A stretch of DNA of 48,093 bases, from positions 1 to 48,093 of the forward strand of contig JBKPDT010000160.1 in the NCBI GenBank assembly GCA_046728035.1, read 5' to 3'. The DNA is from Candidatus Methylomirabilota bacterium (GTDB lineage Bacteria > Methylomirabilota > Methylomirabilia > Rokubacteriales > CSP1-6). Below are positions 2,937-24,139 of the stretch, one piece after another. Within the stretch, counting starts at the first letter, position 1. Each line of letters begins with the position of its first letter. The position numbers and the translations under genes are program-made. The notes under the pieces were generated by a model. That model made no database searches and was not told where the DNA came from. It saw only the letters and a program-made list of their open reading frames with translations.

Positions 2937-4835
2937 GTGCACGGCCTCGTCGCTGCCCTCGGAAGCGCCGCCCGGCACCTCACGCGCGAGGCGATCGTCC
3001 ATCACCTGGGCGTCCCCGCCGCAGACGCCGTCCATCTTGTCGCCGCCGAGCCCGGGGTGAGCGTGGCCCTCCTGGCCCCCTCCGGGACCGGCGCGATGCC
3101 GCCCATCGCACGGTCGGCCCGTGGATCGCTGGGTCTCGCGCTCACCGGCTATCTGCTGGTGGACTCCGCCTTGCCCGCGGACCGCCACCCCCGGCTACTG
3201 CTGGAGGCGGTGGAGCTTCGCGGGCTGGAGGCGGCCCTGCGCGACGTGGTGGCTGGCAGCTTCAATCTCGTTGTCGTGGATCGAGCGCGCGACCAGGTGC
3301 TCATCGCCAACGACCTCATCGCCTCGGTCGCCCTCTACTATGCCGAGGTCCCCGGCGGCGCCATCGCCACCACCATTCCGGGGTTGCTCCGGCTCGGCGG
3401 CCTTCTTCCCGCGGAGCTGGACTGGACGGGTGTCGCGGAGTTGGTCCAGCTGGGGCACACCGTCGGCGACCGGTATCCTATCGCGGGCGTGCGGCGCCTT
3501 CACGCGGCATCCGTCCTGTCCTGGGATGGAGGAGGCGCCCGTCTCGATGTCCACGCCACCGACCGCGACCCCAGCCGGCTTGCCGTCGAGCCGGGACACC
3601 CCGACCTTGACCATCTCGGCGACCTGATCGAGACAGCGTGCCGGCGACTGACCCGCCTGGATGGTCGCATTGCGAATCTCCAGAGTGGCGGGCTCGACTC
3701 GCGGCTCGTCCTCGCGGCGTGGCCTCGCGAGGCGCCGCTACCGTGCTACAGCTATGGGCCGGCGGACCTTGCCGACGTCGTCGTCGCCGCGCGGCTGGCC
3801 GAGGTCAGGGGCTCGTCGTTCTGCCGCGTTGCGCTTCCCGGCGACGCCGTGGCCGAGGCCTTCGACGACATGGCCCTCTTCGGGGGCGCGCCCCTGTACC
3901 CGAACCGGTACCTCGCCGCCCGGCACCTTCGTGGAGACGGTTTCGGCGCGGCGGTGGATGGCCTGATGGGCGACCTTCTGATGGGCGGGACCTCATTCAT
4001 TTACCAGGACCGGTTCTCGCGGGTCGGACGATATCTCAAGTCCATTCACCGCTTCGTCGACGGCTCCGTCCGCCGCATCGGCCTCGATGCCCTGACTGAG
4101 ATCATCCTCGACAGCCACACCGACCCCACCGCCGGAGCCTGGGCCGCGCGACACCTGGCCCCCGAGGTCGCCGCGCGCCTGACCGCCGCGACGACCGAGA
4201 TCCGGCAGGACATATGGAGCGAGCTCGGCCGGCTCGCCCCCGACCAGGATTCGGCCGCGCTTCTCCTCCGGAGGTTCCGGATGAGGAGCCGGAGCGCCAA
4301 CTATACCCGTCAGCAGGGTGTCTTCACCCGTCGCTTCGTGCACGTCTACTACCCGTTCCCGGCGGATGTGCCGCTGCTCGAGGCGTTCTTCCGTGTGGAG
4401 CCCCGGGTGACCGCCTTCCACCGGAACCAGATCCGCTTGTTCCGGCGCCGCTATCCGGCGTATGCCGAGGTGCCGTATGCGGCGTCCTTGCTCCCGGTGA
4501 AGCGCGATTCGCTCGTGCACCTGTGGGGACCGAGGCTACGCCGGCGCGGTCTTCGGCTTCCGCTCTTCGAGCCGCGCATCGCCGGTGTAAGGGGAGACTA
4601 CGACGAGTGGCACGAGTGGTTCCAGGCCAGCCCGGCGCTCCGCGCGCGGGTCGGAGGGCTCCTCCCGAAGGTTGGCCTGGCCCATCCCGATCACCTACAA
4701 TCGAAGTTGGAGGACATCGAGCACGGGCGGGAGCTGGGCGCCGGCGAGCTCGCTCACCTGGCCGCCCTGGCCCACTTGCTCACCGCCTCGCCCGCGCGCG
4801 TGGCCCCATCCTCGCGGAGTGTGACAGGCCCATGA
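2937..4835 (+). CDS. AsnB-like ATP-dependent amide synthetase, paralog 2 (PP-loop retained, N-terminal Cys nucleophile absent)
   Basis: GTG 2937 sits one codon after the in-frame TGA 2931-2933, so no longer N-terminus is possible. The N-terminus is '(M)HGLVAALG'. Has the PP-loop 'NLQSGGLDSRLVLAAW'. Collinear with paralog 1 ('LPCYSYGPA..ADV', 'PNRYLAAR', 'DG.MGD.L.GG'). Confidence 0.8.
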   Translation: MHGLVAALGSAARHLTREAIVHHLGVPAADAVHLVAAEPGVSVALLAPSGTGAMPPIARSARGSLGLALTGYLLVDSALPADRHPRLLLEAVELRGLEAALRDVVAGSFNLVVVDRARDQVLIANDLIASVALYYAEVPGGAIATTIPGLLRLGGLLPAELDWTGVAELVQLGHTVGDRYPIAGVRRLHAASVLSWDGGGARLDVHATDRDPSRLAVEPGHPDLDHLGDLIETACRRLTRLDGRIANLQSGGLDSRLVLAAWPREAPLPCYSYGPADLADVVVAARLAEVRGSSFCRVALPGDAVAEAFDDMALFGGAPLYPNRYLAARHLRGDGFGAAVDGLMGDLLMGGTSFIYQDRFSRVGRYLKSIHRFVDGSVRRIGLDALTEIILDSHTDPTAGAWAARHLAPEVAARLTAATTEIRQDIWSELGRLAPDQDSAALLLRRFRMRSRSANYTRQQGVFTRRFVHVYYPFPADVPLLEAFFRVEPRVTAFHRNQIRLFRRRYPAYAEVPYAASLLPVKRDSLVHLWGPRLRRRGLRLPLFEPRIAGVRGDYDEWHEWFQASPALRARVGGLLPKVGLAHPDHLQSKLEDIEHGRELGAGELAHLAALAHLLTASPARVAPSSRSVTGP

Positions 4836-6016
4836 CCGTGCTACACGTCCTCGACCATTCGCTACCGGCGCTGAGCGGCTACAGCACGCGCAGCCGGAAC
4901 ATCGTCGTCTTCCAGCGCGAGGCGGGCCTGCGCCCGGTGGTCGTCACGTCACCCAAGCACCCCGTGGCGGGGCCCGAGCGCGAGGTGCTGGAGGGGATCG
5001 CGCACTACCGGACCCGGCCGGGCCGGGCGGTCGGCATCCCCTACGTTCGCGAGCTGGGCCTGATGGCGGCGCTGGCGCGCCGGATCCGGGACGTGGCGCG
5101 ATCGGAAGGGGCCCGGGTCCTCCACGCCCATTCGCCCGTACTCAATGGGCTGCCCGCGCTGTGGGTCGGGCGGCGCCTCGGGCTCCCCGTCGTCTACGAG
5201 GCCCGTGCCTTCTGGGAGGATGCCGCGGTCGATCAGCAGACCACGCGCGAGGGATCCCTCCGGTACCGGCTGACCCGGACGCTCGAGACATTCCTGTTCC
5301 GGCGGGTCGACCGCGTTGTCGTCATCGCCGAGGCCATGCGCCACGACATCGTCAGGCGCGGTGTCCCCGCCGAGCGTGTGACGGTGGTGCCCAATGGCGT
5401 GGACACGGACATCTTCAGCCCGGTGCTGCGGGACGAGCGCCTCGCCCGCTCGCTCGGCCTCGATGGAGCGCCGGTGCTCGGGTTCATCGGATCCTTCTAC
5501 CACTACGAGGGGCTGAGCCTCCTGCTCGAGGCGTTGCCCGCGCTGCGTGCGCGGATGCCGGGCGTCCGTGTGCTGCTGGTGGGGGGCGGCGACGAAGAGG
5601 TGGCCCTCCGGTCGATGTCGGCGCGCATCGGCGACGCCGTGGTCTTCGCGGGCCGAGTGCCCTACGACCGGATCCGCGACTACTACTCCCTCATCGACGT
5701 CTTCGTCTGCCCGCGGCGCCGGATGCGCCTGACCGAGCTCGTGACGCCCCTGAAGCCGCTCGAGGCGATGGCGATGGCCTGCCCGGTGCTCGCCAGCGAT
5801 GTGGGTGGACAGGCCGAGCTCATCCGCCACGACGTGACGGGTGTGCTCTTCTCCGCGGAGTCCCGCGACTCGCTCGTGGAGGCGGCGGCGGGGCTCGGTG
5901 CCGATCCCGCGCGGCGTGCCCGGCTCGGGCGCCAGGCGCGGGAATTCGTGGTGGCCCAGCGCGGGTGGCCCCAGGTGGTCGGCCGGTACCTGCCCCTCTA
6001 TGAGGCCGGAGCCTAG
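4832..6016 (+). CDS. GT4-family glycosyltransferase, exosortase/PEP-CTERM-associated type
   Basis: ATG 4832 overlaps the upstream TGA (ATGA). The N-terminus 'MTVLHVLDHSLPALSGYSTRSRNIV' resembles exosortase-A-associated GTs. The C-terminal GT4 motif is 'PLKPLEAMAMACPVLASDVGGQAELIRHDVTGVLF'. The track ORF start at 4214 is an upstream extension inside the previous gene. Confidence 0.85.
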   Translation: MTVLHVLDHSLPALSGYSTRSRNIVVFQREAGLRPVVVTSPKHPVAGPEREVLEGIAHYRTRPGRAVGIPYVRELGLMAALARRIRDVARSEGARVLHAHSPVLNGLPALWVGRRLGLPVVYEARAFWEDAAVDQQTTREGSLRYRLTRTLETFLFRRVDRVVVIAEAMRHDIVRRGVPAERVTVVPNGVDTDIFSPVLRDERLARSLGLDGAPVLGFIGSFYHYEGLSLLLEALPALRARMPGVRVLLVGGGDEEVALRSMSARIGDAVVFAGRVPYDRIRDYYSLIDVFVCPRRRMRLTELVTPLKPLEAMAMACPVLASDVGGQAELIRHDVTGVLFSAESRDSLVEAAAGLGADPARRARLGRQAREFVVAQRGWPQVVGRYLPLYEAGA

Positions 6017-7256
6017 GCGCGCCGTGCGAGCCCTCGTCCTGTCCTCGACGTTTCCCAACGCCAATCAGCCCACGCTGGGCGTCTTCATCCGCGAGCGGAT
6101 GCGAGCCCTCGCCGGCCGGTGCGAGCTGCGCGTGGTGGCGCCGGTGCCGTGGTTCCCCGCCAATGGGCTCATCCGCGGCGCGAGCGTGGTCGGGCTCCCG
6201 GCAGTCGAGGACGGCGGCGGGTTCCCCGTCTATCACCCGTCCTTCCTGTCCGTCCCGCGCTATCTCAAGTGCCTCGACGGCCTTCTCTACGCGATCTCGT
6301 TGGCCCCGTTCGTGGCGCGCCTGCGCCGGCAATTCCCGTTCGATCTGATCGACGCCCATTTCGCCTACCCCGATGGCGTCGCCGCCGTGCTCCTGGGCCG
6401 GCTCCTGCGCAGGCCGGTGGTCATCACGCTCCGCGGCAGCATTGTCCGTCTCCAGCACTACCGGCTCCATCGGCCACAGATCCGCCGGGCCCTGGAGGGC
6501 GCCGCGGGGATCATCGCGGTGAGCCAGTCGCTGAAGGACGTCGCCGCCGGCCTGGGCATCGTGCCGGAGCGGATCACGGTGATCCCGAACGGCGTGGATC
6601 TCGCAAAGTTCCATCCGGTCACCCGGGCCGCAGCCCGGGCGACGTGCGGGCTCCCCGCGGACCGGCCGGTCATCCTCACCGTCGGCGGCATCTACGAGGG
6701 CAAGGGACAACATCTGGTCGTCGAGGCCCTGGCCAGCCTGTCGGCCCGCTATCCCGACGCGCTCTACGTGATGGTGGGGGGCGATCGCCGAGACGGCTAT
6801 CCAGAGCGCGTGCGGGAGCTCGCCACACGGAGCGGCCTGGCCGACCGGCTGCGCTTCGCGGGGGCTCACCCCCACACAGCGCTCGCCGCCTGGTACTCCG
6901 CCGCAGACGTCTTCTGCCTCGCCACCCAATCCGAGGGCTGGGCCAATGTGCTCCTGGAAGCGCTCGCCTGCGGGACGCCGGTGGTCACCACCCGGGTCGG
7001 CGGCAATGCCGAGATCGTCCGCGAGGGGCGTGACGGCCTGCTCGTGCCGTTCGGCGACGTGCCCGCTCTTGCGCGGGCCCTCGACCGCGCGCTCACGTCG
7101 AGCTGGGACTCCGCCGCGCTCACCGCCCATGCCGCCGGGCACACGTGGCACGCCGCCGCGAACGGCGTGATGGGCGAGTTCGCGCGCGTCGTGGCCGCCG
7201 TGCCGTCCGTCGGCTCGGCGAATCCCAAGCGTTCGACCGCGGTGTCCAACCGATGA
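6000..7256 (+). CDS. GT4-family glycosyltransferase
   Basis: ATG 6000 gives a 17-nt overlap with the upstream gene. Has 'RALVLSSTFPNANQPTLGVFIRERM' and the GT4 C-terminal motif 'SEGWANVLLEALACGTPVVTTRVGGNAEIVREGRDGLLV'. Confidence 0.8.
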   Translation: MRPEPRRAVRALVLSSTFPNANQPTLGVFIRERMRALAGRCELRVVAPVPWFPANGLIRGASVVGLPAVEDGGGFPVYHPSFLSVPRYLKCLDGLLYAISLAPFVARLRRQFPFDLIDAHFAYPDGVAAVLLGRLLRRPVVITLRGSIVRLQHYRLHRPQIRRALEGAAGIIAVSQSLKDVAAGLGIVPERITVIPNGVDLAKFHPVTRAAARATCGLPADRPVILTVGGIYEGKGQHLVVEALASLSARYPDALYVMVGGDRRDGYPERVRELATRSGLADRLRFAGAHPHTALAAWYSAADVFCLATQSEGWANVLLEALACGTPVVTTRVGGNAEIVREGRDGLLVPFGDVPALARALDRALTSSWDSAALTAHAAGHTWHAAANGVMGEFARVVAAVPSVGSANPKRSTAVSNR

Positions 7257-8425
7257 TCACCACGCTCTGGCGGAAGCGGCTCTACCGTACCGAGGCCCTG
7301 CGCCTCATGGCCCGTGACCTCCGGGGCTGGCGTGGGCCCGTGCGCGCGCCCGGCGAGCATCTGGACGCGGCCGCCCGCTGGATCCTGCGCGCCCAGGCGG
7401 CGACGCGGGACGACGGGGTGTCTGGCGGCTACTCGCTCGAGGACGGGTGGATCGCCTCCTATCCGGAGACGACCGGTTACATCATCCCGACCCTCCTCGC
7501 CTACGCGGACTATTCCGGCAAGCGCGAGTACGCCGCGCACGCGCTCGCCATGGCCGACTGGGAGTGCGCGGTGCAGCTCCCGGAAGGCGGCTTCCCGGGC
7601 CACTTCGTGAACCAGACCAATCCCCCCGCGGTCTTCAACACCGGACAGGTAATCTTCGGCCTCCTCGCAGCGCACGAGACGTTCGGGAACCCGCGGTTTC
7701 TCGACGCCGCCCGGCGAGCGGGGGCCTGGCTCGCGGCCATCCAGGAGCGCGACGGCTCGTGGCGCCGGTTCGACTACCGCGACACGGTGCACGTCTACAA
7801 CACCCGCACGGCGTGGGCTCTCGTGGAGCTGGGCCTGGCCGCGGGCGCCGACGCGACGCGCGCCGCCGGCGAGCGGCACCTCGACTGGGCGCTGGACCAG
7901 CAGGATCGGGACGGTTGGTTCCGCAACGCCGCGTTCGGCGCCGGCGAGGACCCGTTCCTGCACACCATCGCTTATACGACACAGGGGCTGCTCGAGGCCG
8001 GCCTTCGGGTCGGCCGGGCCGACTACGTGGCGGCCGCGGAGCGCGCCTGCCGCGCGCTCGTGCCCCACGTGCGGCCCGACGGCCATATCCCGGGCACCTT
8101 CGCGCCGGGCTGGCGCCCCACCGCCCGCTACTCGTGCCTGACCGGAAACGCCCAGATGGCGGCCCAGTGGCTCCGGCTCCACGATCGCACGGGCGACCCG
8201 GGATTCCGGGAAGCCGCCGTCCGCGCCCTGACGTTCCTCAAGCGCACGCAGGATTGCGAGACGCACAATCCTCACGCGCGCGGGGCCATCAAGGGCTCAC
8301 ACCCCTTCTGGGGGCGCTATCTCTTCGGCACCTATCCCAACTGGGCCGTGAAGTTCTTCATGGACGCCCTCCTCATGGAGGAGCTCGTCCTCACGGGACG
8401 GAAGTCATGCATCCGCTGCTGGTGA
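7253..8425 (+). CDS. Prenyltransferase/squalene-cyclase-like (alpha/alpha)6-barrel protein with QW repeats
   Basis: ATG 7253 overlaps the upstream TGA (ATGA). Has QW-type repeats 'WLAAIQERDGSWRRF' and 'LDWALDQQDRDGWFRN', plus 'SYPETTGYIIPTLL'. Function is unknown in this context. Confidence 0.6.
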   Translation: MITTLWRKRLYRTEALRLMARDLRGWRGPVRAPGEHLDAAARWILRAQAATRDDGVSGGYSLEDGWIASYPETTGYIIPTLLAYADYSGKREYAAHALAMADWECAVQLPEGGFPGHFVNQTNPPAVFNTGQVIFGLLAAHETFGNPRFLDAARRAGAWLAAIQERDGSWRRFDYRDTVHVYNTRTAWALVELGLAAGADATRAAGERHLDWALDQQDRDGWFRNAAFGAGEDPFLHTIAYTTQGLLEAGLRVGRADYVAAAERACRALVPHVRPDGHIPGTFAPGWRPTARYSCLTGNAQMAAQWLRLHDRTGDPGFREAAVRALTFLKRTQDCETHNPHARGAIKGSHPFWGRYLFGTYPNWAVKFFMDALLMEELVLTGRKSCIRCW

Positions 8426-9786
8426 AGACGGTCGTCTACCCGCTCCACGAGCGGCTCAAGGGGAAGGGCACCTTTCCCTGGCTCCGCCGGCTCGAGGCGA
8501 GCCAGTGGTGGACGCCGGGCCGGCTCGCCGCCGCCCAACTCGACCGGCTGAGGGCGCATCTCGAGTGGGCGTACGCGCGCGTGCCGTACTACCGGGGGCT
8601 CTTCGATGAGCACGGGCTGCGGCCAGCGTCGATACAGACCCTCGACGACTTCCGCCGCGTGCCGTTCCTCACCCGCGAGATACTCCGCGACCGCGGCCCC
8701 GACCTGGCCGCCCGCGCGCGGCTCCGCGGGGTCCAGCGCCTCGCCACCGGCGGCTCCACCGGCGCGCCGGTCGCCATCCTGATCGACGCGGAGCGGATGG
8801 GCGTCGGGGACGGCATTCGCCTCCGCGCGCACCGTTGGTTCGGAATCGAGCCGGGCGCCCGCGAGGTGGTGCTGTGGGGCTCGCCCATCGAGGTCACACG
8901 CCAGGATCGCGTCCGCATCCTGCGTGACCGCTTCCTGAACTCCACCCTGCTCTCGGCGTTCAACATGGGCGAGCCCGAGATGGCGCGCTACGGCGAGGCC
9001 ATCGCCCGGATCGGCCCGGAGAAGATGTACGGGTACGCGAGCGCCTTCACTCTCCTCGCCGGGTACCTGCGGGCCAGGGGCTGGACGCCCCCGGCGGGCC
9101 TGAAGGCCATCTTCACTACCGCCGAGCCCCTCTTCGATTTTCAGCGGAAGGCCATCGAGGAGGCGTTCGGCTCCCGGGTCGCGACCGAGTACGGCTCGCG
9201 CGACGCGGGCCTCACCGCCAACGAGTGCCCGGAGGGATCGCTCCACGTCCCCGCCGAGGGCATCCTCGTCGAGGTCGACGGGGCGGGTGCGGACGGCCTT
9301 GGCGAGATCGTCGTGACCAATCTCTACTCGCCGGCGATGCCGATCATCCGCTACCGCACCGGCGACCTCGGCCGCCTCGATCCGGCCCCCTGCCCGTGCG
9401 GGCGCGGGCTGCCCCGGCTGGCCAGCGTCGAGGGACGGCGGACGGACTTTCTCGTCGCCACCGACGGTCGCCTCCTGCACGCCCTGTCCATCATCTATAT
9501 CCTCCGCGAGACCCCCGGTCTCGCCCAGTTCCGCGTCGTCCAGGAGGAGGTCGAGCGGGTGACGATACAGGTTGCGCCTGCCGACGCCTTGTCCGAGGCG
9601 GGCCGGCGGTGGCTGGTCGAGCGCGTGCAGGCCCTTCTAGGCGCCTCCGTCCGGGTCGCCGTGGAGGCCGTGGGGGACATTCCCGCCGAAGCCTCGGGGA
9701 AGCACCGGTACGTGGTGTCGAAGGTTGCCGATCGTTACGTGGGCGAGCTTCTGTCGGGCGCGGCCAACGGGAAGGGGCGGCGATGA
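8407..9786 (+). CDS. Phenylacetate-CoA ligase / CapK / F390-synthetase-like adenylate-forming enzyme
   Basis: ATG 8407 gives a 19-nt overlap with the upstream gene. Has 'VPYYRGLFDEHGLRPASIQTLDDFRRVPFLTREILRD', the P-loop-like 'LATGGSTGAPVAI', and 'YGSRDAG', 'IIRYRTGDLG'. Confidence 0.75.
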   Translation: MHPLLVKTVVYPLHERLKGKGTFPWLRRLEASQWWTPGRLAAAQLDRLRAHLEWAYARVPYYRGLFDEHGLRPASIQTLDDFRRVPFLTREILRDRGPDLAARARLRGVQRLATGGSTGAPVAILIDAERMGVGDGIRLRAHRWFGIEPGAREVVLWGSPIEVTRQDRVRILRDRFLNSTLLSAFNMGEPEMARYGEAIARIGPEKMYGYASAFTLLAGYLRARGWTPPAGLKAIFTTAEPLFDFQRKAIEEAFGSRVATEYGSRDAGLTANECPEGSLHVPAEGILVEVDGAGADGLGEIVVTNLYSPAMPIIRYRTGDLGRLDPAPCPCGRGLPRLASVEGRRTDFLVATDGRLLHALSIIYILRETPGLAQFRVVQEEVERVTIQVAPADALSEAGRRWLVERVQALLGASVRVAVEAVGDIPAEASGKHRYVVSKVADRYVGELLSGAANGKGRR

Positions 9787-10997
9787 GGGACCCGGCCCCG
9801 GTGCTCGTCACCGACGCGCCCTCGAACGCGAACCTGGCCGTGGTGCGCTCGCTGGGCCGGCAGGGCATCCCGGTAGGCGTGTGCGGGTTCGAAGGCGAGT
9901 TCAACCTCTCCTTCCACTCCCGCTACGTCCAGGAGCGCGTCTTCCTGCCCTCTCCCGCTCGCGACCCCTCCGGATTCCTCGGCGGTCTCCGGGCGCTGCT
10001 CGTGACCGGCAAGTATCCGATCCTCTTCCCCACGACCGACCGGACCATACAGCTCGTCGCGGCGCACCGGGCGGAGCTTCCCGCCTGGATCCGCGTTCCC
10101 ATCGCGCCGCAAGCGGCCATCGAAACTGCGCTGGACAAGGAAGCCACGCTGACCCTGGCGCGGCGGCTCGGGGTCCCGACGCCCCGCACGTGGTGTCCGG
10201 CTGGCCCCGCCGCGCTCGAGCAGACACTCGGCGAGATCCGCTATCCCGTCATCGTCAAGCCGCGCCAGACCAATTTCCTCGGTGCCGACGGACGGCTCCA
10301 CAAGACGGGCTATGCCATCGTCGACGACGCCCCCGCGCTCGCGCGGGCCTATGCCGAGATCGACCGTGCGGTGCCGCGACCGCTGATCCAGGAGGTCGTC
10401 CAGGGGGACGGCGCAGGCGTCTTTTCGATCTGGGATCACGGGACGCCCCGCGCCTGGTTCGCGCACCGTCGCCTCCGCGAGGAGGATCCGCGCGGCGGGC
10501 GCGCCTCGGCGGCGACGAGTGTGCGGTGCGACCCGCGCCTCCGGGCCTGGGCGGAGCAGCTGCTCGGCGCGCTCGCGTGGCACGGCGTGGCCATGGTGGA
10601 GTTCAAGTGGGACGCCGCCACGGGCGCGGCGTGGCTGATGGAGATCAACGGCCGCTTCTGGGGCTCCCTGGCCCTTGCCCTCGCCGCGGGCGCGGACTTC
10701 CCCTACTGGCTGTATCGCCTCGCCAACGGCGAGCCGATCGAGGCCCCCGCCGACTATCCCGCCGGGGTGGTGGCGCGCGACCCCATCGCGGAGCTCAAGC
10801 ATTTCGTGCGCGTGCTCGCGCCCGGCCGCCGGAACGCCGGCGGCGGCGCTCCTTCCCGCTGGGCGACGCTCCGGCAGATGGGAAGCATCCTCCATCCCAC
10901 GCGGGACTCCTACAACTGGACGACGGACGATCCGGAGCCGGGGCGGCAGGAGTGGCGGCACCTCTTCCGACGGGCGAGAGGGCTCGCCAAGCCATGA
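9783..10997 (+). CDS. ATP-grasp family carboxylate-amine ligase
   Basis: ATG 9783 overlaps the upstream TGA (ATGA). Has 'YPVIVKPRQ', 'LIQEVVQGDGAGVFS' and 'GVAMVEFKWD...AWLMEINGRFWGS' (the E-x-N metal/ATP site). Confidence 0.75.
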   Translation: MRDPAPVLVTDAPSNANLAVVRSLGRQGIPVGVCGFEGEFNLSFHSRYVQERVFLPSPARDPSGFLGGLRALLVTGKYPILFPTTDRTIQLVAAHRAELPAWIRVPIAPQAAIETALDKEATLTLARRLGVPTPRTWCPAGPAALEQTLGEIRYPVIVKPRQTNFLGADGRLHKTGYAIVDDAPALARAYAEIDRAVPRPLIQEVVQGDGAGVFSIWDHGTPRAWFAHRRLREEDPRGGRASAATSVRCDPRLRAWAEQLLGALAWHGVAMVEFKWDAATGAAWLMEINGRFWGSLALALAAGADFPYWLYRLANGEPIEAPADYPAGVVARDPIAELKHFVRVLAPGRRNAGGGAPSRWATLRQMGSILHPTRDSYNWTTDDPEPGRQEWRHLFRRARGLAKP

Positions 10998-11806
10998 GGC
11001 TGCGCGGCGTCGCCCACGTGCACTCGACTTACTCGTACGATGGGTGCCATTCCCTCGCCGACCTGGCGGCCTTCTTTCGCGCCGAGGGCCTGGACTTCGT
11101 CCTCATGAGCGAGCACAACCGCGGCCTGTCGGATGCCATCATGGCGAAGCTCGCGGCCGAGTGCGCGGCGCTGTCGGACGCCCGCCTCCTCGTCGTCCCG
11201 GGACTCGAGTGTGAGGCGACGCCGGACTGGGTGCATGTCCTCGGCTACAACGTCAGCAGGTTGATCACCGCCCGTGAGGCCCCCGCCATCCTCGCGGCGA
11301 TCCGCGGCGCGGGCGGCTTCGCCGCGCTCGCCCATCCCCACTACCGGGACGCCTCCGCGCTCGTGGACCCGGGGACGTTGGCCGGCCTGCAGGGGTGGGA
11401 GGTATGGAATGGCAAGGCGGATGGAGGGCACGCTCCCCAGGCCAAGAGCCTGGATGTCTACGCGGAGCTGCGCCGGACCCAGCCACGGCTCATGCCGCTC
11501 GGGGGGGCCGACCTGCACCGGCTGGAGAGCTATCCCGGCATCTGTCTCGAGGTGGACGGCGCCGAGCGCACCGCCGGCGCCATCCTCTCCGCCCTGTCGG
11601 CCGGGACATACCGGGTGACAGGACGCGGCTTCGCCTTCTCGGCCGGAGAGCGCCTCGTCGGCTCGATGGTGCCCTCGAGCGGGTCGGCCGCGGGCATTCT
11701 GCGCACGCTCAAGCGCGGCGCGCAGCGACTCGACCGCCGCTTCGCGCGGGCCGGGCTCCGCATGCCAGAGTCGGTGTATCGCCTGATGCGGAGGCTCCTG
11801 CGGTGA
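10994..11806 (+). CDS. PHP-domain metal-dependent phosphoesterase
   Basis: ATG 10994 overlaps the upstream TGA (ATGA). Has 'GVAHVHSTYSYDGCHSLADLAAFFRAEGLDFVLMSEHN' (HxH ... EH PHP motifs) and 'ALAHPH'. Confidence 0.7.
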   Translation: MRLRGVAHVHSTYSYDGCHSLADLAAFFRAEGLDFVLMSEHNRGLSDAIMAKLAAECAALSDARLLVVPGLECEATPDWVHVLGYNVSRLITAREAPAILAAIRGAGGFAALAHPHYRDASALVDPGTLAGLQGWEVWNGKADGGHAPQAKSLDVYAELRRTQPRLMPLGGADLHRLESYPGICLEVDGAERTAGAILSALSAGTYRVTGRGFAFSAGERLVGSMVPSSGSAAGILRTLKRGAQRLDRRFARAGLRMPESVYRLMRRLLR

Positions 11807-12831
11807 CCGCCCCATTGAACGTCTCGACGTCCGCCCCGCCACAGTGGTCCGCGCTCCGGCCGGTCCCCTTTCAGTCGGAAGGGTTCGGGACTGCCATGGG
11901 CACCATGGGCTACCGCCCCCTGTACCTCCATGACGGCGCGCGCTGCGCCCTCGCTCTCGTGCGGGGGGCCCTGCCGGGGCTCGGCAATCTCACCGCCCGC
12001 GCCAATGTCTTCCTCGACGGGGCCGACGCGGCGTTCACGGCGGCCGCGCTCGGTGCCCTCGCCCGGCGCGGGATTCCCTACGTGAAGGTGGGGGACACCA
12101 TGTCCGGCGTGGCGTGGGAGTCGCTGCCGGCTGGCTGGGCCTTCGGCCACACGCGCATGATCCGGCGCCATACCTTCGTGCTCGACCTCACGCAATCCGA
12201 GGCCGCCCTGCTCAAAGCCATGGACGGGGCCGAGCGCAAGATTCGCAAGGCCGACCGCGAGGGCGTCGAGGTGCGCCCCGTCCAGTCCCGCGAGGAGCTG
12301 GCCGCCTATTGCCGGCTGTCGCGCGACACCTCGGAGCGCGTGCGCGCGCGCTCGGCGTACACCGACTTCCCCGACCGCTTCTTCGAGGATCTCTACCGCC
12401 TGCTCGGTGCCCAGGGCATCGCGCGCTTCTACGTCGCCTGGCACAAGGACGAACCCCTCGCCGGGTGCCTCTTCACGTGCTCGGACTCGACCATGCTCTA
12501 CTACCTGGGTGGTTCCACGCGCGACCGCGAGCTCACCGCCAAGCAGGCGCCCGCCGCGGTGTTCTGGCACGCGATCCGCGAGGCCAAGCGACTCGGCCTG
12601 TCGCGGTTCGACCTGGGCGGCTGCACGCCGACCGAGGATCCCCACGATCCGCGCCACGGAGTCTATACGTTCAAGAAGCGGTGGGGTGGTCGGCTCGAGA
12701 CGTTCTACAATCTCGATGTGGTGCTTTCGAGCATCCCCTACTATCTCCAGGAGCGCGTGCTCTCGCCGGTGTGGGACCGGGTCCATCCTTTGTACTTCCG
12801 GCTGATGGACGCCATGCGGTCGGCGCGATGA
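11803..12831 (+). CDS. FemAB-like (GNAT-fold, aminoacyl-tRNA-dependent transferase family) protein, PEP-CTERM-system-associated type
   Basis: GTG 11803 overlaps the upstream TGA (GTGA). Has 'FYVAWHKDEPLAGCLFTCSDSTMLYYLGGSTRDRELTAKQAPAAVFWHAIREAKRLGLSRFDLGG' and 'VYTFKKRWGG', as in FemAB/MurM-type peptide-bridge transferases. Confidence 0.75.
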   Translation: MTAPLNVSTSAPPQWSALRPVPFQSEGFGTAMGTMGYRPLYLHDGARCALALVRGALPGLGNLTARANVFLDGADAAFTAAALGALARRGIPYVKVGDTMSGVAWESLPAGWAFGHTRMIRRHTFVLDLTQSEAALLKAMDGAERKIRKADREGVEVRPVQSREELAAYCRLSRDTSERVRARSAYTDFPDRFFEDLYRLLGAQGIARFYVAWHKDEPLAGCLFTCSDSTMLYYLGGSTRDRELTAKQAPAAVFWHAIREAKRLGLSRFDLGGCTPTEDPHDPRHGVYTFKKRWGGRLETFYNLDVVLSSIPYYLQERVLSPVWDRVHPLYFRLMDAMRSAR

Positions 12832-14936
12832 CCTCCATGCCCGCGGTCGTGATGCTCCTTGCGGTGGCGAGCTGCCTGGTCCTCGCCGGCACCGCGCTCC
12901 TGCCCCGCTCGCGCGGCGGCGCGCGCTGGGGCTTCGCGCTGGGCATGCTGGGCCTCGCCCTCGAGACCGCGGCGAGCTGGGGCCTGCTCACCCTGACCGA
13001 CGACAGCGAGGGGCGGCAGCTCTACCTGCGGGCCTGGGCGGTGGCCGGCCTCGTCGCCCTGGTGCCGTGGGGCTATTTCATCGTGTCCCTCGGGTCGGGC
13101 GGGGGCCGATCCTCGCCCCGCCCGATCCGCCTCGCTCTCGCCGCTGGGAGCGTGGCCCTCCTGGCCGCCGCCGCCGCCGTGATCACCCTCCCCGCGTTCC
13201 AGATCACCGACGTCCCCGGCCCCTTCTACGCGGCGAGGCTGGAGTCTGTAGGTCGATGGGCGATCGTGCTCCAGGTGCTCGCCACCGCCGCGCTCCTGGG
13301 CGGGCTGGAGGCCTGCCTGCGGACGTCCAAGAGCGAGACGCGCTGGCGCATCAAGTATCTGGTGCTGGGGCTGGGCGGCGTCTTCCTCATGCGCTTCTTC
13401 CTCCTGAGCCAGATCCTCCTCTTCCAGGTCGTGATGGCGGTCTACCTCACCACCACCGCCGCCGCCCTTTTCCTCGGCAACCTGCTCGTGGGCGGCTCGC
13501 TCCTGCGCGAGCGGCTCCTGCTCGCCGAGGTCACGGTCTCGCGACGGGTCGTGTACCGGTCGGTCGTGGTCGGCGTGCTCGGCGTCTACCTCCTCGTGGT
13601 GGGCGCGCTGGGCTGGCTGCTGAGCCACCTCGGGATCCCCGAGGAGCTGTTCTGGGGCTCGCTGGTGGTCTTCGTCACCGCCATCGCGCTCGCCGCCATC
13701 CTGTTCTCCGAGAACGTGCGCTGGCGCTTCAAGCGCTTCATCGGCTTCCACTTCTACCGGAACAAGTACGACTATCGCGAGCAGTGGACCAGCTTCACCC
13801 GTCGGCTCGGGCCGCTGCCGTCGGAGGGAGATCTCGTGCGCGCGGTGCTCGAGGCGGTCACCGAGGCCGCGGGGGCGGCGCGCGCCGTGCTCTACCTGGT
13901 CGACGCGCGCGACGGGCAGTATCATCGGGCGGGCGCCGTGGAAGCCGACCGCGCTCCCGCCGTGCTGGCCCCGGGTCATCCCCTCATCCGCCGGCTCGAG
14001 TCCGCGGCGAGCGCCACCGTCGTCGGCGGGGCGGAGACGGAGGAGCCCGGGTCCGACAGCCGGAGCCTCGCCACCCAGTTCGCCGAGGGATCGGCGGCGG
14101 TGGCGCTGCGGTGGCGCGACCGTATCACCGGCGTCATGCTGATCGGGCCCGAGCGGACGGGCGCCCAGTACCACGCCGAGGACCTCGAGTTCCTCTCCAC
14201 GGCGGCCGACCAGGCGGCGGGCGCCGTCGTCACTGCCCAGATGTCGGAGCGCCTGGCGCAGGCGCGCGAGTTCGAGGCCTTTCACCGCCTGACATCCTTC
14301 GTGATCCACGACCTCAAGAACTCCATCTCCGCGCTCTCACTCCTCAGTCAGAACGCCCTCGAGCACTTCGACGACCCCGAATTCCAGCGTGACGCCCTGC
14401 GCACCCTGTCCCGCACGGTGGAGCGGATGCAGGGGCTCCTCGGGCGACTCTCGGCGGCCCCCGAGGCGGCGGAGCTGCGCCCCCAGCCGGTGGACCTCGC
14501 CGCCGTCGCGCTGGAGGCGACCAGGCCGGTGGGAGGGGGACGCGTGCAGCTCGTCAAGGAGCTCGCGCCGCTCCCGCCCGTCCCCGCCGACCCGGACGCC
14601 CTCCTCAGGGTGCTCCAGAATCTCGTGACCAATGCCGTCGAATCGGTGAAGGGCGAGGGGACCGTGACGATCCGCACCCACGAGTCCGAAGGGTGGGCGG
14701 TGTGCACGGTCACCGACACCGGCGGGGGGATGCCCGCGGAGTTCATCAAGACCGCGCTCTTCGTTCCGTTCCGCTCCACGAAGAAGGGCGGATGGGGCAT
14801 CGGTCTCTACCAGGCCAAGGGCATCGTCGAGGCACACGGCGGACGCATCGAGGTCACCAGCACCGTCGGCCGCGGCACGACCTTCACGGTGCGGCTGCCC
14901 ATCGAGCCGCATACTCCCGAGAGATCAGCCCCATGA
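12828..14936 (+). CDS. prsK: PEP-CTERM system sensor histidine kinase PrsK
   Basis: ATG 12828 overlaps the upstream TGA (ATGA). Has a long polytopic N-terminal region, a GAF-like middle, H-box 'SFVIHDLKNSISALSLL', N-box 'VLQNLVTNAVES', G1 'VTDTGGGMP' and G2 'KKGGWGIGLYQAK'. Confidence 0.8.
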   Translation: MTSMPAVVMLLAVASCLVLAGTALLPRSRGGARWGFALGMLGLALETAASWGLLTLTDDSEGRQLYLRAWAVAGLVALVPWGYFIVSLGSGGGRSSPRPIRLALAAGSVALLAAAAAVITLPAFQITDVPGPFYAARLESVGRWAIVLQVLATAALLGGLEACLRTSKSETRWRIKYLVLGLGGVFLMRFFLLSQILLFQVVMAVYLTTTAAALFLGNLLVGGSLLRERLLLAEVTVSRRVVYRSVVVGVLGVYLLVVGALGWLLSHLGIPEELFWGSLVVFVTAIALAAILFSENVRWRFKRFIGFHFYRNKYDYREQWTSFTRRLGPLPSEGDLVRAVLEAVTEAAGAARAVLYLVDARDGQYHRAGAVEADRAPAVLAPGHPLIRRLESAASATVVGGAETEEPGSDSRSLATQFAEGSAAVALRWRDRITGVMLIGPERTGAQYHAEDLEFLSTAADQAAGAVVTAQMSERLAQAREFEAFHRLTSFVIHDLKNSISALSLLSQNALEHFDDPEFQRDALRTLSRTVERMQGLLGRLSAAPEAAELRPQPVDLAAVALEATRPVGGGRVQLVKELAPLPPVPADPDALLRVLQNLVTNAVESVKGEGTVTIRTHESEGWAVCTVTDTGGGMPAEFIKTALFVPFRSTKKGGWGIGLYQAKGIVEAHGGRIEVTSTVGRGTTFTVRLPIEPHTPERSAP

Positions 14937-15823
14937 GCGGCAACGCGAACACCACCGACTTGACCGCCGCCCCCGCCGTCTCGGGAGCGGCCGGCGGTCG
15001 GGAGTGGCTGCTCCTGGGCATACCGTTCGCGGCGGCGCTCGTGCTCTACGCGCCGCTGCTCCCCGGCCTCGCCGCCGAGTGGACCGAGTTCCCGAGCCTC
15101 TCGCACGGCTTCGCCATCCCCGTGATCGCCGCCTACCTGGCTTGGACGCGGCGGAACCGACTTCGCGAGACGCCGATCCGGCCCTCCGTCTGGGGCCTGC
15201 CCGTGCTCGTCCTCGGCCTGGGCGCACTCGTGGTGGGGACGCTCGGCGACGAGTCGTTCGTGGCTCGCATCTCGCTGCCCGTGATCCTGTTGGGGCTCAC
15301 CCTCTTCCTGGCCGGCTGGCGGGTCCTGGCGCAGGTGTGGCTGGCCATCGCGTACCTTGCGCTGATGGTCCCCCTGCCCTATTCCACGCTCAAGCAGATC
15401 ACCTACCGCTCGCGGCTCTTCGACGCGGAGGTCTCGGCGTGGGCCCTCGGCGTGCTGGGGGTCCCCGTGCACCAGGATGGCGTCATACTCCATCTGCCGA
15501 ACATCGACCTCGAGGTGGCCGACGCCTGCAGCAGCATCCCCGCGATCGCCGCCCTCCTCTCGCTGGGGGTGGCCTATGCGTTCGTGAGCGGGCGCCCGCG
15601 CGCAGTACAGGTGTTGCTGGTCGCGGCCACGCTGCCGCTGGCCATCACCGCCAACATCATCCGTATCACGAGCGTGTCGTGGCTGGCCTATCAGGTCGGC
15701 CCCTGGACCCTGCAGACGAGCTACCACATGTTCAACGGGACGGTGAACTTCATGTTCACCTTCCTCCTCCTGCTTGCGCTCGACGCCACGCTGGGTAAGG
15801 TCGTGGCGCGGTGGCGGTCATGA
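14933..15823 (+). CDS. Exosortase (EpsH/Xrt family transpeptidase), subtype not assignable by eye
   Basis: ATG 14933 overlaps the upstream TGA (ATGA). It is polytopic and carries the signature residues 'SLSHGFAIP', Cys in 'EVADACSSIPAI', Arg in 'TANIIRITS' and His in 'SYHMFNG'. Confidence 0.85.
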   Translation: MSGNANTTDLTAAPAVSGAAGGREWLLLGIPFAAALVLYAPLLPGLAAEWTEFPSLSHGFAIPVIAAYLAWTRRNRLRETPIRPSVWGLPVLVLGLGALVVGTLGDESFVARISLPVILLGLTLFLAGWRVLAQVWLAIAYLALMVPLPYSTLKQITYRSRLFDAEVSAWALGVLGVPVHQDGVILHLPNIDLEVADACSSIPAIAALLSLGVAYAFVSGRPRAVQVLLVAATLPLAITANIIRITSVSWLAYQVGPWTLQTSYHMFNGTVNFMFTFLLLLALDATLGKVVARWRS

Positions 15824-16467
15824 GCCGCCAGGGCCGGTTCTTCCTCGTCGCAATGGTGCTGCTGGTCACGGCGGGCGCGGCGCTCGCCCTCCCGCGGGGC
15901 GCCCGTGATGTGCCGCTCTTGGCCCCGCTCGAGTCCCTCCCCACCACGCTCGGCGCCTGGCGGCCCGCGGAGCCGGCCGCCGACGAGATACTCCCGCGCG
16001 ACCCGCGGGCGGCCGAGAGTCTGGCGCGCGGGTACACGGACGGAACGCGCACGGCATGGGTCGCCGTCGGCTTCTATCCGAATCAGACCGAAGGCCAGCG
16101 GCCCGCGACGGGAAGGCTAGTCTTCCCCAGCAGCGGCTGGACGGACCTGAGCGAAGAGACGGTCTCGATCCCCGCGTCCGGCGCGGGCGCCTCCGCCCTG
16201 CCCGCGAACCTGGTGCGAGTCCGACGAGGCGACCGGCGCGTCGCGATTCTCTACTGGTACCATCTCCCGGGCGGGACGGTCGGGAGCGATCATGTCTACC
16301 GGGCGAGGCTCCTGTGGAACCGGCTCGCTCACCGCCGGGCCGACGGCGCGCTCGTGCGCGTCGCCATGCCCCTGCCGGCCGACCTGAGCCCGGCGGCGGT
16401 GGTCGCCGAGCAGGCCGAGTTCCTTCGGGTCTTTCTGCCCGAGCTCTCGCGGAGTCTCCCGCGCTAG
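15820..16467 (+). CDS. epsI: EpsI-family exosortase-associated protein
   Basis: ATG 15820 overlaps the upstream TGA (ATGA); GTG 15811 is an alternative start. Has the N-terminal anchor 'GRFFLVAMVLLVTAGAALAL', then 'LPTTLGAWRP', as in EpsI proteins. Confidence 0.7.
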   Translation: MSRQGRFFLVAMVLLVTAGAALALPRGARDVPLLAPLESLPTTLGAWRPAEPAADEILPRDPRAAESLARGYTDGTRTAWVAVGFYPNQTEGQRPATGRLVFPSSGWTDLSEETVSIPASGAGASALPANLVRVRRGDRRVAILYWYHLPGGTVGSDHVYRARLLWNRLAHRRADGALVRVAMPLPADLSPAAVVAEQAEFLRVFLPELSRSLPR

Positions 16468-16493: not shown

Positions 16494-17858
16494 ATGAGCA
16501 AGCCAAAAGTGATGGTGGTGGATGACGACGAGGGCATCCGGACACAGCTGAAGTACGCCCTTCAGGACGAGTACACGGTGACCCTGGCGGAGGACCGTCC
16601 TCAGGCCCTGGCCCTCCTTCAGGAAGTGCAGCCCGCCGTGGTCAGCCTCGATCTCGGATTGCCGCCCGAGCCCGACGGCGCCGAGGAGGGGTTGAAGACC
16701 CTGGACGAGATCCTCCAGGCGGCGCCGCTCACCAAGGTCATCGTCGTCACCGGCAACAACGACCGCGCCAACGCGCTGCGCGCCATGCAGCTCGGCGCCT
16801 TCGACTACCACCTGAAGCCCATCAACCTTCCAGAGTACAAGGTCGTCGTCCGTCGCGCCGCCTTCCTCAGCGACCTCTCGCGGGAGAGCGAGGCGGCCGC
16901 CCGCACGGACGAGCAGGCCGTTCGCTTCGAGGAGATCATCGGCAAGACCACGCGCATGCGCGAGATCTTCTCGCTGGTCCAGCGCGTGGCCAAGACCGAC
17001 GCCACGGTGCTCATCGAGGGGGAGAGCGGCACGGGCAAGGAGCTGATCGCGCGGGCCATCCACCACCGGAGCACCCGGCGCGACGGCCCGTTCGTCGCCA
17101 TCAACTGCGGGGCGATCCCGGAGACGCTCCTCGAATCCGAGCTGTTCGGCCACGAGCGGGGCGCCTTCACGGGGGCCCATGTCCAGCGCAAGGGCAAGTT
17201 CGAGATGGCCGAGCGGGGCACCCTCTTCCTCGATGAGATCGGAGAGCTCCCGTTGACCCTGCAGGTGAAGATTCTGCGCTTTCTGCAGGAGCGCACGGTG
17301 GAGCGGATCGGCGGCCGCCAGCCGATCGCGGTGGACCTGCGAATCATCGCCGCGACCAACCGCGACTTGAAGGCGCATCTCGAGCGGGGTCTCTTCCGCG
17401 AGGATCTCTACTATCGGCTCTCGGTGGTGCGGGTGGAGGTCCCGCCGCTGCGGGAGCGGGCCGAGGACGTCGTGATTCTCGCCAACGCGTTCCTGAGCCG
17501 CGCGGTCAAGGAGCAGCGGCGATCCGTGCGATTCGGGCCCCGCGCGCTCCAGTCCCTGCTCGCCTATGCCTGGCCGGGTAATGTCCGGGAGCTCGAGAAC
17601 CGGGTGAGCCGGGCCGTCATCATGACCAAGGGCCGGATCATCGAGCCCGCCGACCTGGACCTTGCCGCGGTGGACGCGACCGCCGAGCAGGGGTCGCTGC
17701 GGGAGACTCGCCAGCGGGTGGAGCGGCAGACCCTCGTCGAGGTGCTCAGCCGCAACCGGGGCAACGTCAGCCAGGCCGCGCGCGAGCTGCGGATCAGCCG
17801 GCCGACCCTCCACGGGCTGCTCGACAAGCACGAGATCAACGCCAAAGATTTCCGCTGA
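16494..17858 (+). CDS. prsR: PEP-CTERM-box sigma-54-dependent response regulator PrsR
   Basis: The RBS GAGGAG (16481-16486) lies 7 nt before the ATG. Has REC 'KVMVVDDDEGIR...VVSLDLGLPP', AAA+ 'GESGTGKE', the sigma-54 contact loop 'GAFTGA', and the Fis-type HTH 'NVSQAARELRISRPTLHGLL'. Confidence 0.85.
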   Translation: MSKPKVMVVDDDEGIRTQLKYALQDEYTVTLAEDRPQALALLQEVQPAVVSLDLGLPPEPDGAEEGLKTLDEILQAAPLTKVIVVTGNNDRANALRAMQLGAFDYHLKPINLPEYKVVVRRAAFLSDLSRESEAAARTDEQAVRFEEIIGKTTRMREIFSLVQRVAKTDATVLIEGESGTGKELIARAIHHRSTRRDGPFVAINCGAIPETLLESELFGHERGAFTGAHVQRKGKFEMAERGTLFLDEIGELPLTLQVKILRFLQERTVERIGGRQPIAVDLRIIAATNRDLKAHLERGLFREDLYYRLSVVRVEVPPLRERAEDVVILANAFLSRAVKEQRRSVRFGPRALQSLLAYAWPGNVRELENRVSRAVIMTKGRIIEPADLDLAAVDATAEQGSLRETRQRVERQTLVEVLSRNRGNVSQAARELRISRPTLHGLLDKHEINAKDFR

Positions 17859-21864: not shown

Positions 21865-22296
21865 ACCGATGACCTCCACCGTTGAGGTTGATACTGACCG
21901 TGGAATTCGAACGGCGCGACCGACACGCGATCGAGCGTCATCCGTACCCCGGATCGGCCCTCCACCGGTCGGCGCGACGCTCGAGCCACGCCAGGACGGC
22001 AGCGGCTCCGCGTCGTAGGCTGCCGCTGATCACTCGGACCTTCATCAGTGGCCTCTGCCAATATAGCAGGCCCAGTGAGCACAACCCAAAGCCAATTTTC
22101 TGTGTAACCACGCGTCAATGCTGAAACAGTAATGGAGTCAAGAGTTCGACATGCAGGTAAATTGGGCGTCACGCCTGTCCGGGCAACATCTAGGGAGATC
22201 GTGCAACCCCGCGGCCGAATTGTGAGGATCGCTCTTGCGCGCGTGGCCGTCGCGGAGCGAGAATGGTCCACTTCTCGAACGCATGGAGGCGATCAA

Positions 22297-24138: not shown

Positions 24139-24139
24139 T

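Follow-up and report, generated by a model that had tools for sequence, protein, structure and literature searches.

The locus analysed here raises the question of what a run of five overlapping genes, lying between two glycosyltransferase genes and an exosortase operon, contributes to the pathway encoded around it. The genes, designated g1 to g5, occupy positions 7253-12831 of a 48,093-nucleotide stretch of contig JBKPDT010000160.1 of Candidatus Methylomirabilota bacterium (assembly GCA_046728035.1), which as a whole is referred to below as the window, and their best-named relatives are found in metagenome-assembled genomes of Rokubacteria/Methylomirabilota. An earlier note on this DNA had described them as a cassette and as a candidate pathway for aminoacyl or peptide decoration. 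The present analysis shows that g1-g5 are not one indivisible cassette: they form two modules, one comprising the genes of an (alpha/alpha)6 barrel and a CapK-type enzyme, the other those of ATP-grasp, PHP and FemAB-like proteins, each of which is widely found in the absence of the other and often has no exosortase gene within 5-10 kb. As for function, by analogy with described systems we consider it somewhat likelier to be right than wrong that the g1-g5 products act in the cytoplasm on a lipid-linked repeat unit and furnish its uronic acids with substituents in amide or aminoacyl linkage. Aminoacyl or amide decoration of a glycan, as suggested before, is also the reading favoured by the published precedents, i.e., VpsH/VpsJ, VimA and Cj1438.

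Gene boundaries and predicted enzymes

At a G+C content of 72% the raw lists of open reading frames (ORFs) of the window are noisy, and the coding frames were therefore set by a plot of GC content at the third codon position. The plot displayed unambiguous frame switches at about 7253, 8425, 9786, 10997, 11806, 12831 and 14936, and the in-frame start codons at these switches define five plus-strand genes within 7253-12831: g1 (7253-8425, 390 amino acids (aa)), g2 (8407-9786, 459 aa, with another possible GTG start at 8422), g3 (9783-10997, 404 aa), g4 (10994-11806, 270 aa) and g5 (11803-12831, 342 aa). The extent and overlap of the genes, as given in the earlier note, proved to be exact. The junctions are ATGA/GTGA overlaps of 4 bp, with the exception of g1/g2, which overlap by 19 bp; the GT4 gene before g1 (stop at 7256) and prsK after g5 (start at 12828) are coupled by the same 4-bp type of overlap, the whole set being flanked by two GT4 genes on the 5' side and by prsK-exosortase-epsI-prsR on the 3' side. 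Sequence inspection revealed no transmembrane segment, hydrophobic segment or signal peptide in any of the five proteins, and all of them are therefore predicted to be cytoplasmic. The five fold or family calls made previously (barrel, CapK, ATP-grasp, PHP and FemAB) hold; the analysis drew on Pfam and NCBIfam searches, profile searches of the Protein Data Bank (PDB) and Foldseek searches with AlphaFold2 (AF2) models of g1 and g4.

The g1 product is a single (alpha/alpha)6 barrel with QW-like repeats. It matched the Pfam family SQHop_cyclase_C with 45 bits (cutoff 26) and, under the Pfam cutoff, the C-terminal domain of D-glucuronyl C5-epimerase (C5-epim_C, 20.9 bits). The AF2 model (pLDDT 95) consists of one (alpha/alpha)6 barrel, and in the PDB Foldseek placed it closest to unsaturated glucuronyl hydrolases of family GH88 (TM 0.73) and to AGE-superfamily cellobiose/glucose 2-epimerases, 3WKF among them; such carbohydrate enzymes score above sterol and hopene cyclase domains. 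The terpene-cyclase-like label formerly attached to g1 had to be abandoned for this reason, and because the protein is a single 390-aa domain that lacks the DxDD motif and is not of the two-domain beta-gamma build of class II terpene cyclases. Its scores with the squalene-cyclase equivalog models were 28 bits versus 431 (TIGR01507) and 30 bits versus 323 (TIGR01787). A LanC-like protein was rejected as well, given weak matches of 17-18 bits and just one invariant Cys, and a secreted lyase or hydrolase is unlikely, as neither a signal peptide nor a transmembrane segment is present and the secreted beta-helix protein encoded at 17899-19137 suits such a role better. On the basis of the modelled fold we propose that g1 is a uronic-acid-modifying enzyme and a candidate C5-epimerase similar to VpsJ of V. 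cholerae.

The g2 product is predicted to be an adenylate-forming ligase of the CapK/PaaK type, in which the ANL-type motifs GGSTG, YGSRD and YRTGD and a C-terminal GK are recognizable, and which matched PaaK and AjiA1 structures in the PDB with E values of 1e-28 to 1e-22 (AjiA1, 9e-28; PaaK, 4e-26). The protein itself had no match in the local Pfam copy, its orthologues at 52-80% identity being annotated with PF27533 (CapK_C), and its NCBIfam matches to PaaK/F390-synthetase-like models (87-120 bits) were all below the equivalog cutoffs. Membership in the DVU_1553 family was rejected (120 bits, cutoff 300). By analogy with VpsH, g2 is proposed to be an amide ligase joining a uronate carboxyl group to an amine (amino acid).

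For g3, the sole Pfam match above cutoff is ATPgrasp_Ter (PF15632, 34 bits versus 29.1). Its profile matched the structural-genomics protein 2pn1 best (5e-14), followed by carboxylases, RimK, LysX and Ddl, and no characterised close relative was found among the solved structures. The ATP-grasp motifs KPR (VIVKPR) and E-x-N (EINGR) are retained. Judging from its sequence, g3 is an ATP-grasp ligase, with acyl-phosphate chemistry, and from the adjacency of the two genes it is taken to be the obligate partner of g4.

The PHP assignment of g4 is not borne out by the Pfam score, which is 18.6 bits for PF02811 (cutoff 26.4); nonetheless, both the metal ligands and the PHP fold are kept. In a 42-sequence alignment H10, D16, H41, E72, H114, D173 and H175 are invariant and H8 and E40 nearly so, while the AF2 model (pLDDT 92) is a distorted (beta/alpha)7 barrel whose top Foldseek matches are all PHP proteins, namely TM0559 (2anu, E value 1e-11), then BVU_3505 (3e38) and RNase AM. 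Since the ligands are invariant and the model matches PHP structures, the predicted structure places g4 among PHP-fold trinuclear-metal hydrolases despite the low Pfam score. Its best NCBIfam match is the CehA/McbA metallohydrolase domain (NF038032, 62 bits versus a cutoff of 80). The family is tiny, with 116 clusters, nearly all unnamed, among 5.8 billion proteins, and 492 relatives were found in metagenome contigs. An analogous enzyme pair described below suggests that g4 is a phosphoesterase acting on the product of g3.

The g5 product is a FemX/FemAB-like (dupli-GNAT) transferase, which passed the thresholds of both FemAB (PF02388, 71.7 bits versus 24) and Acetyltransf_6 (PF13480, 70.3 bits versus 22). 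The model pepcterm_femAB (TIGR03019), with which the earlier note had associated it, does not include g5 (34.4 bits, cutoff 260.35). Searched against the PDB, the g5 family profile matched only aminoacyl-tRNA-dependent enzymes, i.e., FemX of S. aureus (5.5e-17) and of W. viridescens (FemX_Wv, 2e-11), FemA and an aminoacyl-tRNA-dependent peptide synthase. In the profile alignment the YvFK305 stretch of FemX_Wv, which ends in the catalytic Lys, falls on the invariant F290-K291 of g5 (FKKRWGG), K305 being opposite K291. Being the best solved relatives of g5, the Fem enzymes nevertheless differ from it: the coiled-coil insert of FemA is absent from g5, the 342 aa of which correspond to the size of FemX_Wv, identity to the peptidoglycan Fem transferases is low, and the context is that of an exopolysaccharide, the acceptor certainly not being lipid II or UDP-MurNAc-pentapeptide. 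The g5 clade is small and separate (82 clusters, mostly from Rokubacteria/Methylomirabilota metagenomes), and homologues of g5 are named 'GNAT family N-acetyltransferase' by their sources. From its sequence features, g5 is proposed to be an aminoacyl-tRNA-dependent aminoacyl transferase acting on a glycan substituent.

Two modules and their distribution across genomes

The same five genes in the same order were found in the independent contigs L093 (73-83% aa identity), L092 (51-69%) and L121 (43-66%, with partial alignments and a poorer assembly). Because this order recurs in independent contigs, the five-gene arrangement is under selection and is not due to chance. Beyond the window, the full order together with prsK-exosortase-epsI was present only in these three contigs and in fragments, so the exact arrangement is restricted to close Rokubacteria/Methylomirabilota relatives.

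Outside this group the parts separate. The pair of barrel and CapK genes is old and occurs widely, in archaea as well as in bacteria. With more than 4,200 proteins matching g1, the barrel family is very large; of 600 candidate stretches from GTDB species, 592 proved to contain g1 homologues, and the family extends over Proteobacteria, Nitrospirota, Acidobacteriota, Bacteroidota, halophilic archaea, Methanosarcinales and Woesearchaeota, with just two homologues, both haloarchaeal, in the plasmid collection. A CapK gene adjoins the barrel gene in 41 of the 64 non-redundant loci with room on both sides. Where 8 kb or more was available on each side (43 loci), GT4 genes were detected in 33, CapK in 30, exosortase in 11 and a g5-like gene in 4, and 19 of the 30 CapK-positive ones had no exosortase gene; both GT4 genes accompany the pair in about half of the related loci. 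Near the g1 homologues of archaeal and Bacteroidetes loci, wecB and a sugar dehydrogenase gene occur, and the wecB/wecC linkage, seen in 11 of 88 g1 loci, is supportive for these archaeal and Bacteroidetes loci without being decisive. The pair is also present in cultured bacteria, e.g., Methylotuvimicrobium buryatense, Marichromatium gracile and Ca. Nitrotoga, the first of which is genetically tractable.

The second module, ATP-grasp, PHP and FemAB-like, is rare, uncharacterised and confined to metagenomes. Closer relatives were defined by a PHP protein at least 43% identical to g4 (33 loci, 7 of them with long flanks). A g3-type ATP-grasp gene adjoins the PHP gene in 25 of these 33 loci, most of the others having no flank on that side; a FemAB-like gene lies within 2.6 kb of the g4 homologue in 19, and a CapK gene was noted in just 5. 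An exosortase gene was found in 3 of the 7 long-flank loci and none within 5-10 kb in the other 4. The adjacency of g3 and g4 homologues was also observed in 15 of the more distant loci and persists down to about 30% identity; the ATP-grasp/PHP pair is thus old. The distant loci are organised in the order UDP-sugar dehydrogenase, GT4, ATP-grasp, PHP and CE4 deacetylase. In a second arrangement AsnB, an unknown gene, Fem(-Fem), ATP-grasp, PHP and a glycosyltransferase are accompanied by a heparinase II/III-like protein, with no barrel, CapK or exosortase gene. Three loci (L089, L091 and L126) possess the ATP-grasp/PHP pair and the heparinase II/III-like protein and no g1-type barrel. Judging from its Pfam families, we take the N-terminal domain of this protein to be another alpha/alpha toroid, and the protein may fill the corresponding sugar-acid-modifying role.

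In syntenic Rokubacteria the position between the CapK and FemAB-like genes is held by a Formyl_trans_N gene (L008), a GNAT gene (L006), a second FemAB-like gene (L009) or nothing (L007). The ATP-grasp and PHP genes hence sit in a variable slot, every known occupant of which acylates amines, and this fits a free-amine substituent that is capped or extended differently between lineages. A formyltransferase-like gene follows the barrel gene in L001 (gammaproteobacterial) and L004 (KSB1). In a Nitrospira locus GT4, Fem, ATP-grasp, CapK, barrel and Wzx genes stand in a row, with neither PHP nor exosortase. Across phyla, the parts of the five-gene set occur amid genes for glycosyltransferases, Wzx/Wzy, sugar dehydrogenases and deacetylases.

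Proposed tailoring pathway and competing explanations

To judge from PrsK, PrsR, PrsT and the stp3 GT4, which all score above their NCBIfam cutoffs, the surrounding locus is an exopolysaccharide locus of the XrtA/PEP-CTERM type, although its exosortase stays below the XrtA-specific cutoff; its description as an exosortase locus is sustained, and it is unusually rich in carboxylate-activating and acyl-transfer enzymes. In the pathway that we favour, an acceptor oligosaccharide is presumed to be built by the two GT4 enzymes, and g1 would modify a uronic acid of this repeat unit, most likely by C5-epimerisation, as proposed for VpsJ. The carboxyl group of the sugar would then be adenylated by g2 and coupled, in amide linkage, to an amino acid or amine, a role that genetic data assign to VpsH in the case of glycine. 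A second amide would be formed by g3 via an acyl phosphate, with a phosphorylated co-substrate, the phosphate of which g4 would strip from the product, following the logic of Cj1438C/Cj1435. Finally, g5 would move an aminoacyl residue from aminoacyl-tRNA onto the substituent as it grows, at a free amine (or hydroxyl) group, a step comparable to that of VimA on a 2-amino uronic acid.

The precedent for the first two steps comes from V. cholerae, in which VpsJ, with a predicted fold like that of GlcNAc and cellobiose 2-epimerases, is needed for the conversion of lipid-linked ManNAcA to L-GulNAcA, and VpsH, similar to CapK and phenylacetate-CoA ligases, is required in the following step for amide-linked glycine on L-GulNAcA, the GT4 VpsI coming after it; all three act on a lipid-linked repeat unit (PMC13463779). 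The activities of VpsH and of VpsJ, a proposed uronate C5-epimerase, were deduced there from mutants and not from purified enzymes (PMC13463779, 2026). As in the window, an epimerase-like fold protein, a CapK-like protein and a GT4 are encoded together, and 3WKF, matched by g1, is also the structure with which VpsJ was compared. ATP-grasp, PHP, FemAB-like and exosortase genes, all present in the window, are missing from the vps locus.

A counterpart of g3 and g4 is offered by the HS:2 capsule of C. jejuni, for which the C-terminal ATP-grasp domain of Cj1438 (Cj1438C) couples serinol phosphate or ethanolamine phosphate through an amide bond to the C6 carboxylate of glucuronate, after which the dedicated phosphatase Cj1435 removes the phosphate from the product (PMC11800379). 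The pairs share the logic of ligation followed by dephosphorylation in a growing glycan.

For g5 the relevant system is the Wbp/Vim linking-sugar pathway of P. gingivalis and T. forsythia, in which VimE deacetylates a diamino uronic acid, VimA, a protein matching TIGR03019, then decides between Ser and Gly for its 2-amine, and the AsnB-like WbpS amidates the carboxylate (PMC7468200). The chemistry of the FemAB-like proteins of PEP-CTERM systems, regarded as undefined in the earlier note, is thus no longer wholly so, VimA having been assigned the choice between Ser and Gly (PMC7468200); tRNA use by VimA is unproven. The Wbp/Vim pathway resembles the window in combining FemAB/GNAT-like and AsnB-like enzymes, and its product is the acceptor of a sortase-like transpeptidase. 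It differs in having a CE4 partner, absent from g1-g5, in serving a type IX secretion system instead of an exosortase, and in that g5 is far below the TIGR03019 cutoff. Loci of TIGR03019 proteins likewise have in common with the window a transferase of the same superfamily and a neighbourhood of exosortase, PrsK/PrsR, AsnB-like and GT4 genes, and are distinguished by the usual CE4 polysaccharide deacetylase partner.

This missing deacetylase bears on a different explanation, which we regard as improbable, namely that the module exchanges N-acyl groups with no involvement of tRNA or phosphate, g4 being a metal-dependent deacylase, g5 an acyl-CoA-dependent GNAT enzyme and g3 a ligase adding a plain carboxylic acid. 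The CE4 enzyme that performs the role of VimE in classic TIGR03019 loci is not among g1-g5, the best NCBIfam match of g4 is a non-phosphoesterase metallohydrolase domain, g5 matches Acetyltransf_6 as strongly as FemAB and has homologues labelled as N-acetyltransferases, and the variants of the slot in relatives are formyl and acetyl transferases. On the other hand, all the PDB relatives of the g5 profile depend on aminoacyl-tRNA and the FemX catalytic Lys is invariant, the structural neighbours of g4 with known activity are all phosphoesterases or nucleases of the PHP family, and PHP is not simply a substitute for CE4, because the distant ATP-grasp/PHP loci hold both.

The exosortase at the 3' end of the set brings up a further possibility, to which we give about the same low credence: the same enzymes would serve another purpose and, instead of decorating the bulk polymer, make a dedicated linking sugar that bears an aminoacyl or peptide group, its free amine serving the exosortase as nucleophile for the attachment of PEP-CTERM proteins. 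The FemAB-like and ATP-grasp/PHP enzymes would then build a short aminoacyl or peptide stem on a sugar of the lipid-linked repeat unit, and the variable slot would tune or cap the acceptor. Such a role agrees with the direct succession and translational coupling of g5 to prsK-exosortase-epsI and with the confinement of the complete five-gene order to exosortase loci; Veith et al. had speculated that a sugar modified with an amino acid is made by the VimA-like proteins encoded in exosortase loci, thus proposing this very function for PEP-CTERM systems (PMC7468200). The FemXAB-made pentaglycine used by sortase A and the VimA-dependent linking sugar used by PorU are parallels. It is at variance with the absence of exosortase within 5-10 kb in 19 of 30 CapK-positive and 4 of 7 well-flanked ATP-grasp/PHP loci, with the position of g5 outside the exosortase-profiled family TIGR03019 and with a regular-expression scan of the window, which detected no PEP-CTERM substrate gene.

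Tailoring of the uronic acid, as favoured here, has its own difficulties. All five steps are inferred from what was observed, namely the order of the genes, the catalytic residues that they retain, the folds and the conservation of the neighbourhoods. The presence of a uronic acid in the polymer of this locus is assumed: no UDP-sugar dehydrogenase, wecB or wecC was found in the 48-kb window, which does not exclude such a dehydrogenase from the operon, because the latter starts beyond the left edge. The top fold matches of g1 are hydrolases as much as epimerases. The activity of g4 may be directed at a bond other than a phosphoester, as its best, sub-cutoff NCBIfam match would suggest, and the Nitrospira locus carries an ATP-grasp gene with no PHP gene. 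Cj1438C is described as a TupA-like ATP-grasp enzyme, in contrast to the ATPgrasp_Ter protein g3, the parallel being one of mechanism and not of homology, and Cj1435 is not known to be a PHP protein. The agreement of g1 and g2 with VpsJ and VpsH (VC0926 and VC0924) is at the level of fold and annotation, and the role of VpsJ was itself proposed from genetics only (PMC13463779).

Neighbouring genes and significance of the locus

The window starts inside the operon, with a truncated, TIGR03108-like AsnB gene (3-299), followed by an S-adenosylmethionine-dependent methyltransferase gene (296-1054), for which membership in the DVU_1556 family was rejected (82 bits, cutoff 155), by two full-length plus-strand AsnB paralogues (1059-2933 and 2937-4835; asn_synth_AEB, 65 and 44 bits, below the NCBIfam cutoff) and by the two plus-strand genes with Pfam GT4 domains, stp3 (4832-6016; TIGR04063, 502 bits versus 442) and a second one (6024-7256). 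The three AsnB-family and two GT4 genes expected upstream of g1 are thus in place. The AsnB paralogues begin with MYGLVAG and MHGLVAA and lack Cys2, the glutaminase nucleophile of the MCGI start, which is present in the relatives from L092, L008, L007 and L091; the L093 orthologue shares the loss. Judged by this residue, they are probably unable to hydrolyse glutamine and may instead join a different amine to an adenylated carboxylate, being candidates for further carboxylate-amidating enzymes of the same pathway.

Downstream of g5, the plus strand encodes the histidine kinase PrsK (12828-14936; TIGR02916, 415 bits, above cutoff), the exosortase (14933-15823; TIGR02602, 164 bits versus 106), EpsI (15811-16467; TIGR02914, 86 bits, above cutoff) and PrsR (16509-17858; TIGR02915, 591 bits, above cutoff). 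The exosortase scored 162 bits with the XrtA-specific model (cutoff 208), and its match of lowest E value was XrtW (200 bits, cutoff 425), EpsI being a separate gene; it may represent an unclassified exosortase subtype.

The minus strand after prsR encodes, in this order, a beta-helix protein, a Mur-Pth fusion, a haem-oxygenase-like protein, a TIGR03694 acyltransferase, a DevBCA-type exporter and PrsT (414 bits, above the NCBIfam cutoff). The first of these is secreted, NosD/pectate-lyase-like and provided with a signal peptide (17899-19137). The second (19134-21056) combines in one ORF the middle and C-terminal domains of a Mur ligase with peptidyl-tRNA hydrolase (Pfam Mur_ligase_M, Mur_ligase_C and Pept_tRNA_hydro), the latter part retaining GLGNPG, HNVG and DDLD. 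The Mur-type ligase that the earlier note placed downstream of the five genes therefore exists, but at a distance of 6.3 kb, on the opposite strand and fused to peptidyl-tRNA hydrolase, prsK being the gene directly downstream; the likeness to peptidoglycan stem synthesis, also drawn there, is to be taken as an analogy only. The fusion adjoins prsR in L093 as well and is present in L175, and dozens of cluster representatives of 600-660 aa align with it end to end, some of them with an extra N-terminal extension of 480 aa. Its gene overlaps that of the beta-helix protein by 4 bp and is about 110 bp from the gene of the haem-oxygenase-like iron/di-iron enzyme (Haem_oxygenas_2, 21166-21879) just upstream, and the three possibly form a minus-strand operon. 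The link of the fusion to the five-gene set is uncertain; a tRNA-ester hydrolase joined to an amide ligase is suggestive in a locus with a FemX-like gene.

The acyltransferase (TIGR03694, 181 bits), with the fold of FeeM-like N-acyl amino acid synthases, the DevB/DevA/DevC ABC exporter and PrsT are encoded at 23344-27239 on the minus strand, possibly with the acyltransferase and exporter as a separate lipid or N-acyl amino acid branch. These genes could be taken to indicate that the product of g1-g5 is not a glycan substituent but a free small molecule, for instance a signal, a short modified peptide or an N-acyl amino acid, all the more as AjiA1, which serves as a PaaK-like ligase in natural-product biosynthesis, is among the closest solved relatives of g2, and the g5 profile matches an aminoacyl-tRNA-dependent peptide synthase. 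We hold this for very unlikely: the five genes are translationally coupled to GT4 genes and, across phyla, keep the company of the glycan genes listed above, and neither a carrier protein, nor a non-ribosomal peptide synthetase or polyketide synthase, nor a precursor peptide was seen.

A tRNA-Val gene (31648-31723, minus strand), the only hit of the Rfam scan of the window, marks the boundary of the PEP-CTERM locus, with housekeeping genes beyond. The G+C content dips to 0.64-0.66 at about 20-24, 26-28 and 30-32 kb (0.72 elsewhere), and these stretches may be mosaic or horizontally acquired segments.

Literature searches on exosortase with FemAB returned nothing, and those on CapK with taurine and on amide-linked uronic acid with ATP-grasp nothing relevant; the Haft 2006 paper and the Aquincola floc paper make no mention of these gene families. 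Each enzyme type of the locus has a known or recently proposed counterpart, and the system is not of a new kind. Three points are new: its parts were shown to be modules that can be exchanged; the trio of ATP-grasp, PHP and FemAB-like genes is rare, conserved and entirely uncharacterised; and such a trio is coupled directly to an operon with an exosortase. The practical value is limited by the host, a soil bacterium of an uncultured Rokubacteria/Methylomirabilota lineage; the barrel and CapK pair is nonetheless available in cultured bacteria.

The point of attachment of exosortase substrates has been an open question since 2006, and an aminoacyl amine made by a FemAB-family enzyme is the most concrete candidate for it; were it the acceptor, this would be the third independent case of a FemAB-family enzyme making the nucleophile for a sortase-like enzyme. 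More generally, amino-acid and amine substituents alter the charge, matrix properties and antigenicity of bacterial polysaccharides, and the enzymes installing them have been identified only lately (VimA in 2020, Cj1438 in about 2021, VpsH/VpsJ in 2026). The locus described here suggests that these enzyme types constitute a modular, exchangeable toolkit spread across many phyla.

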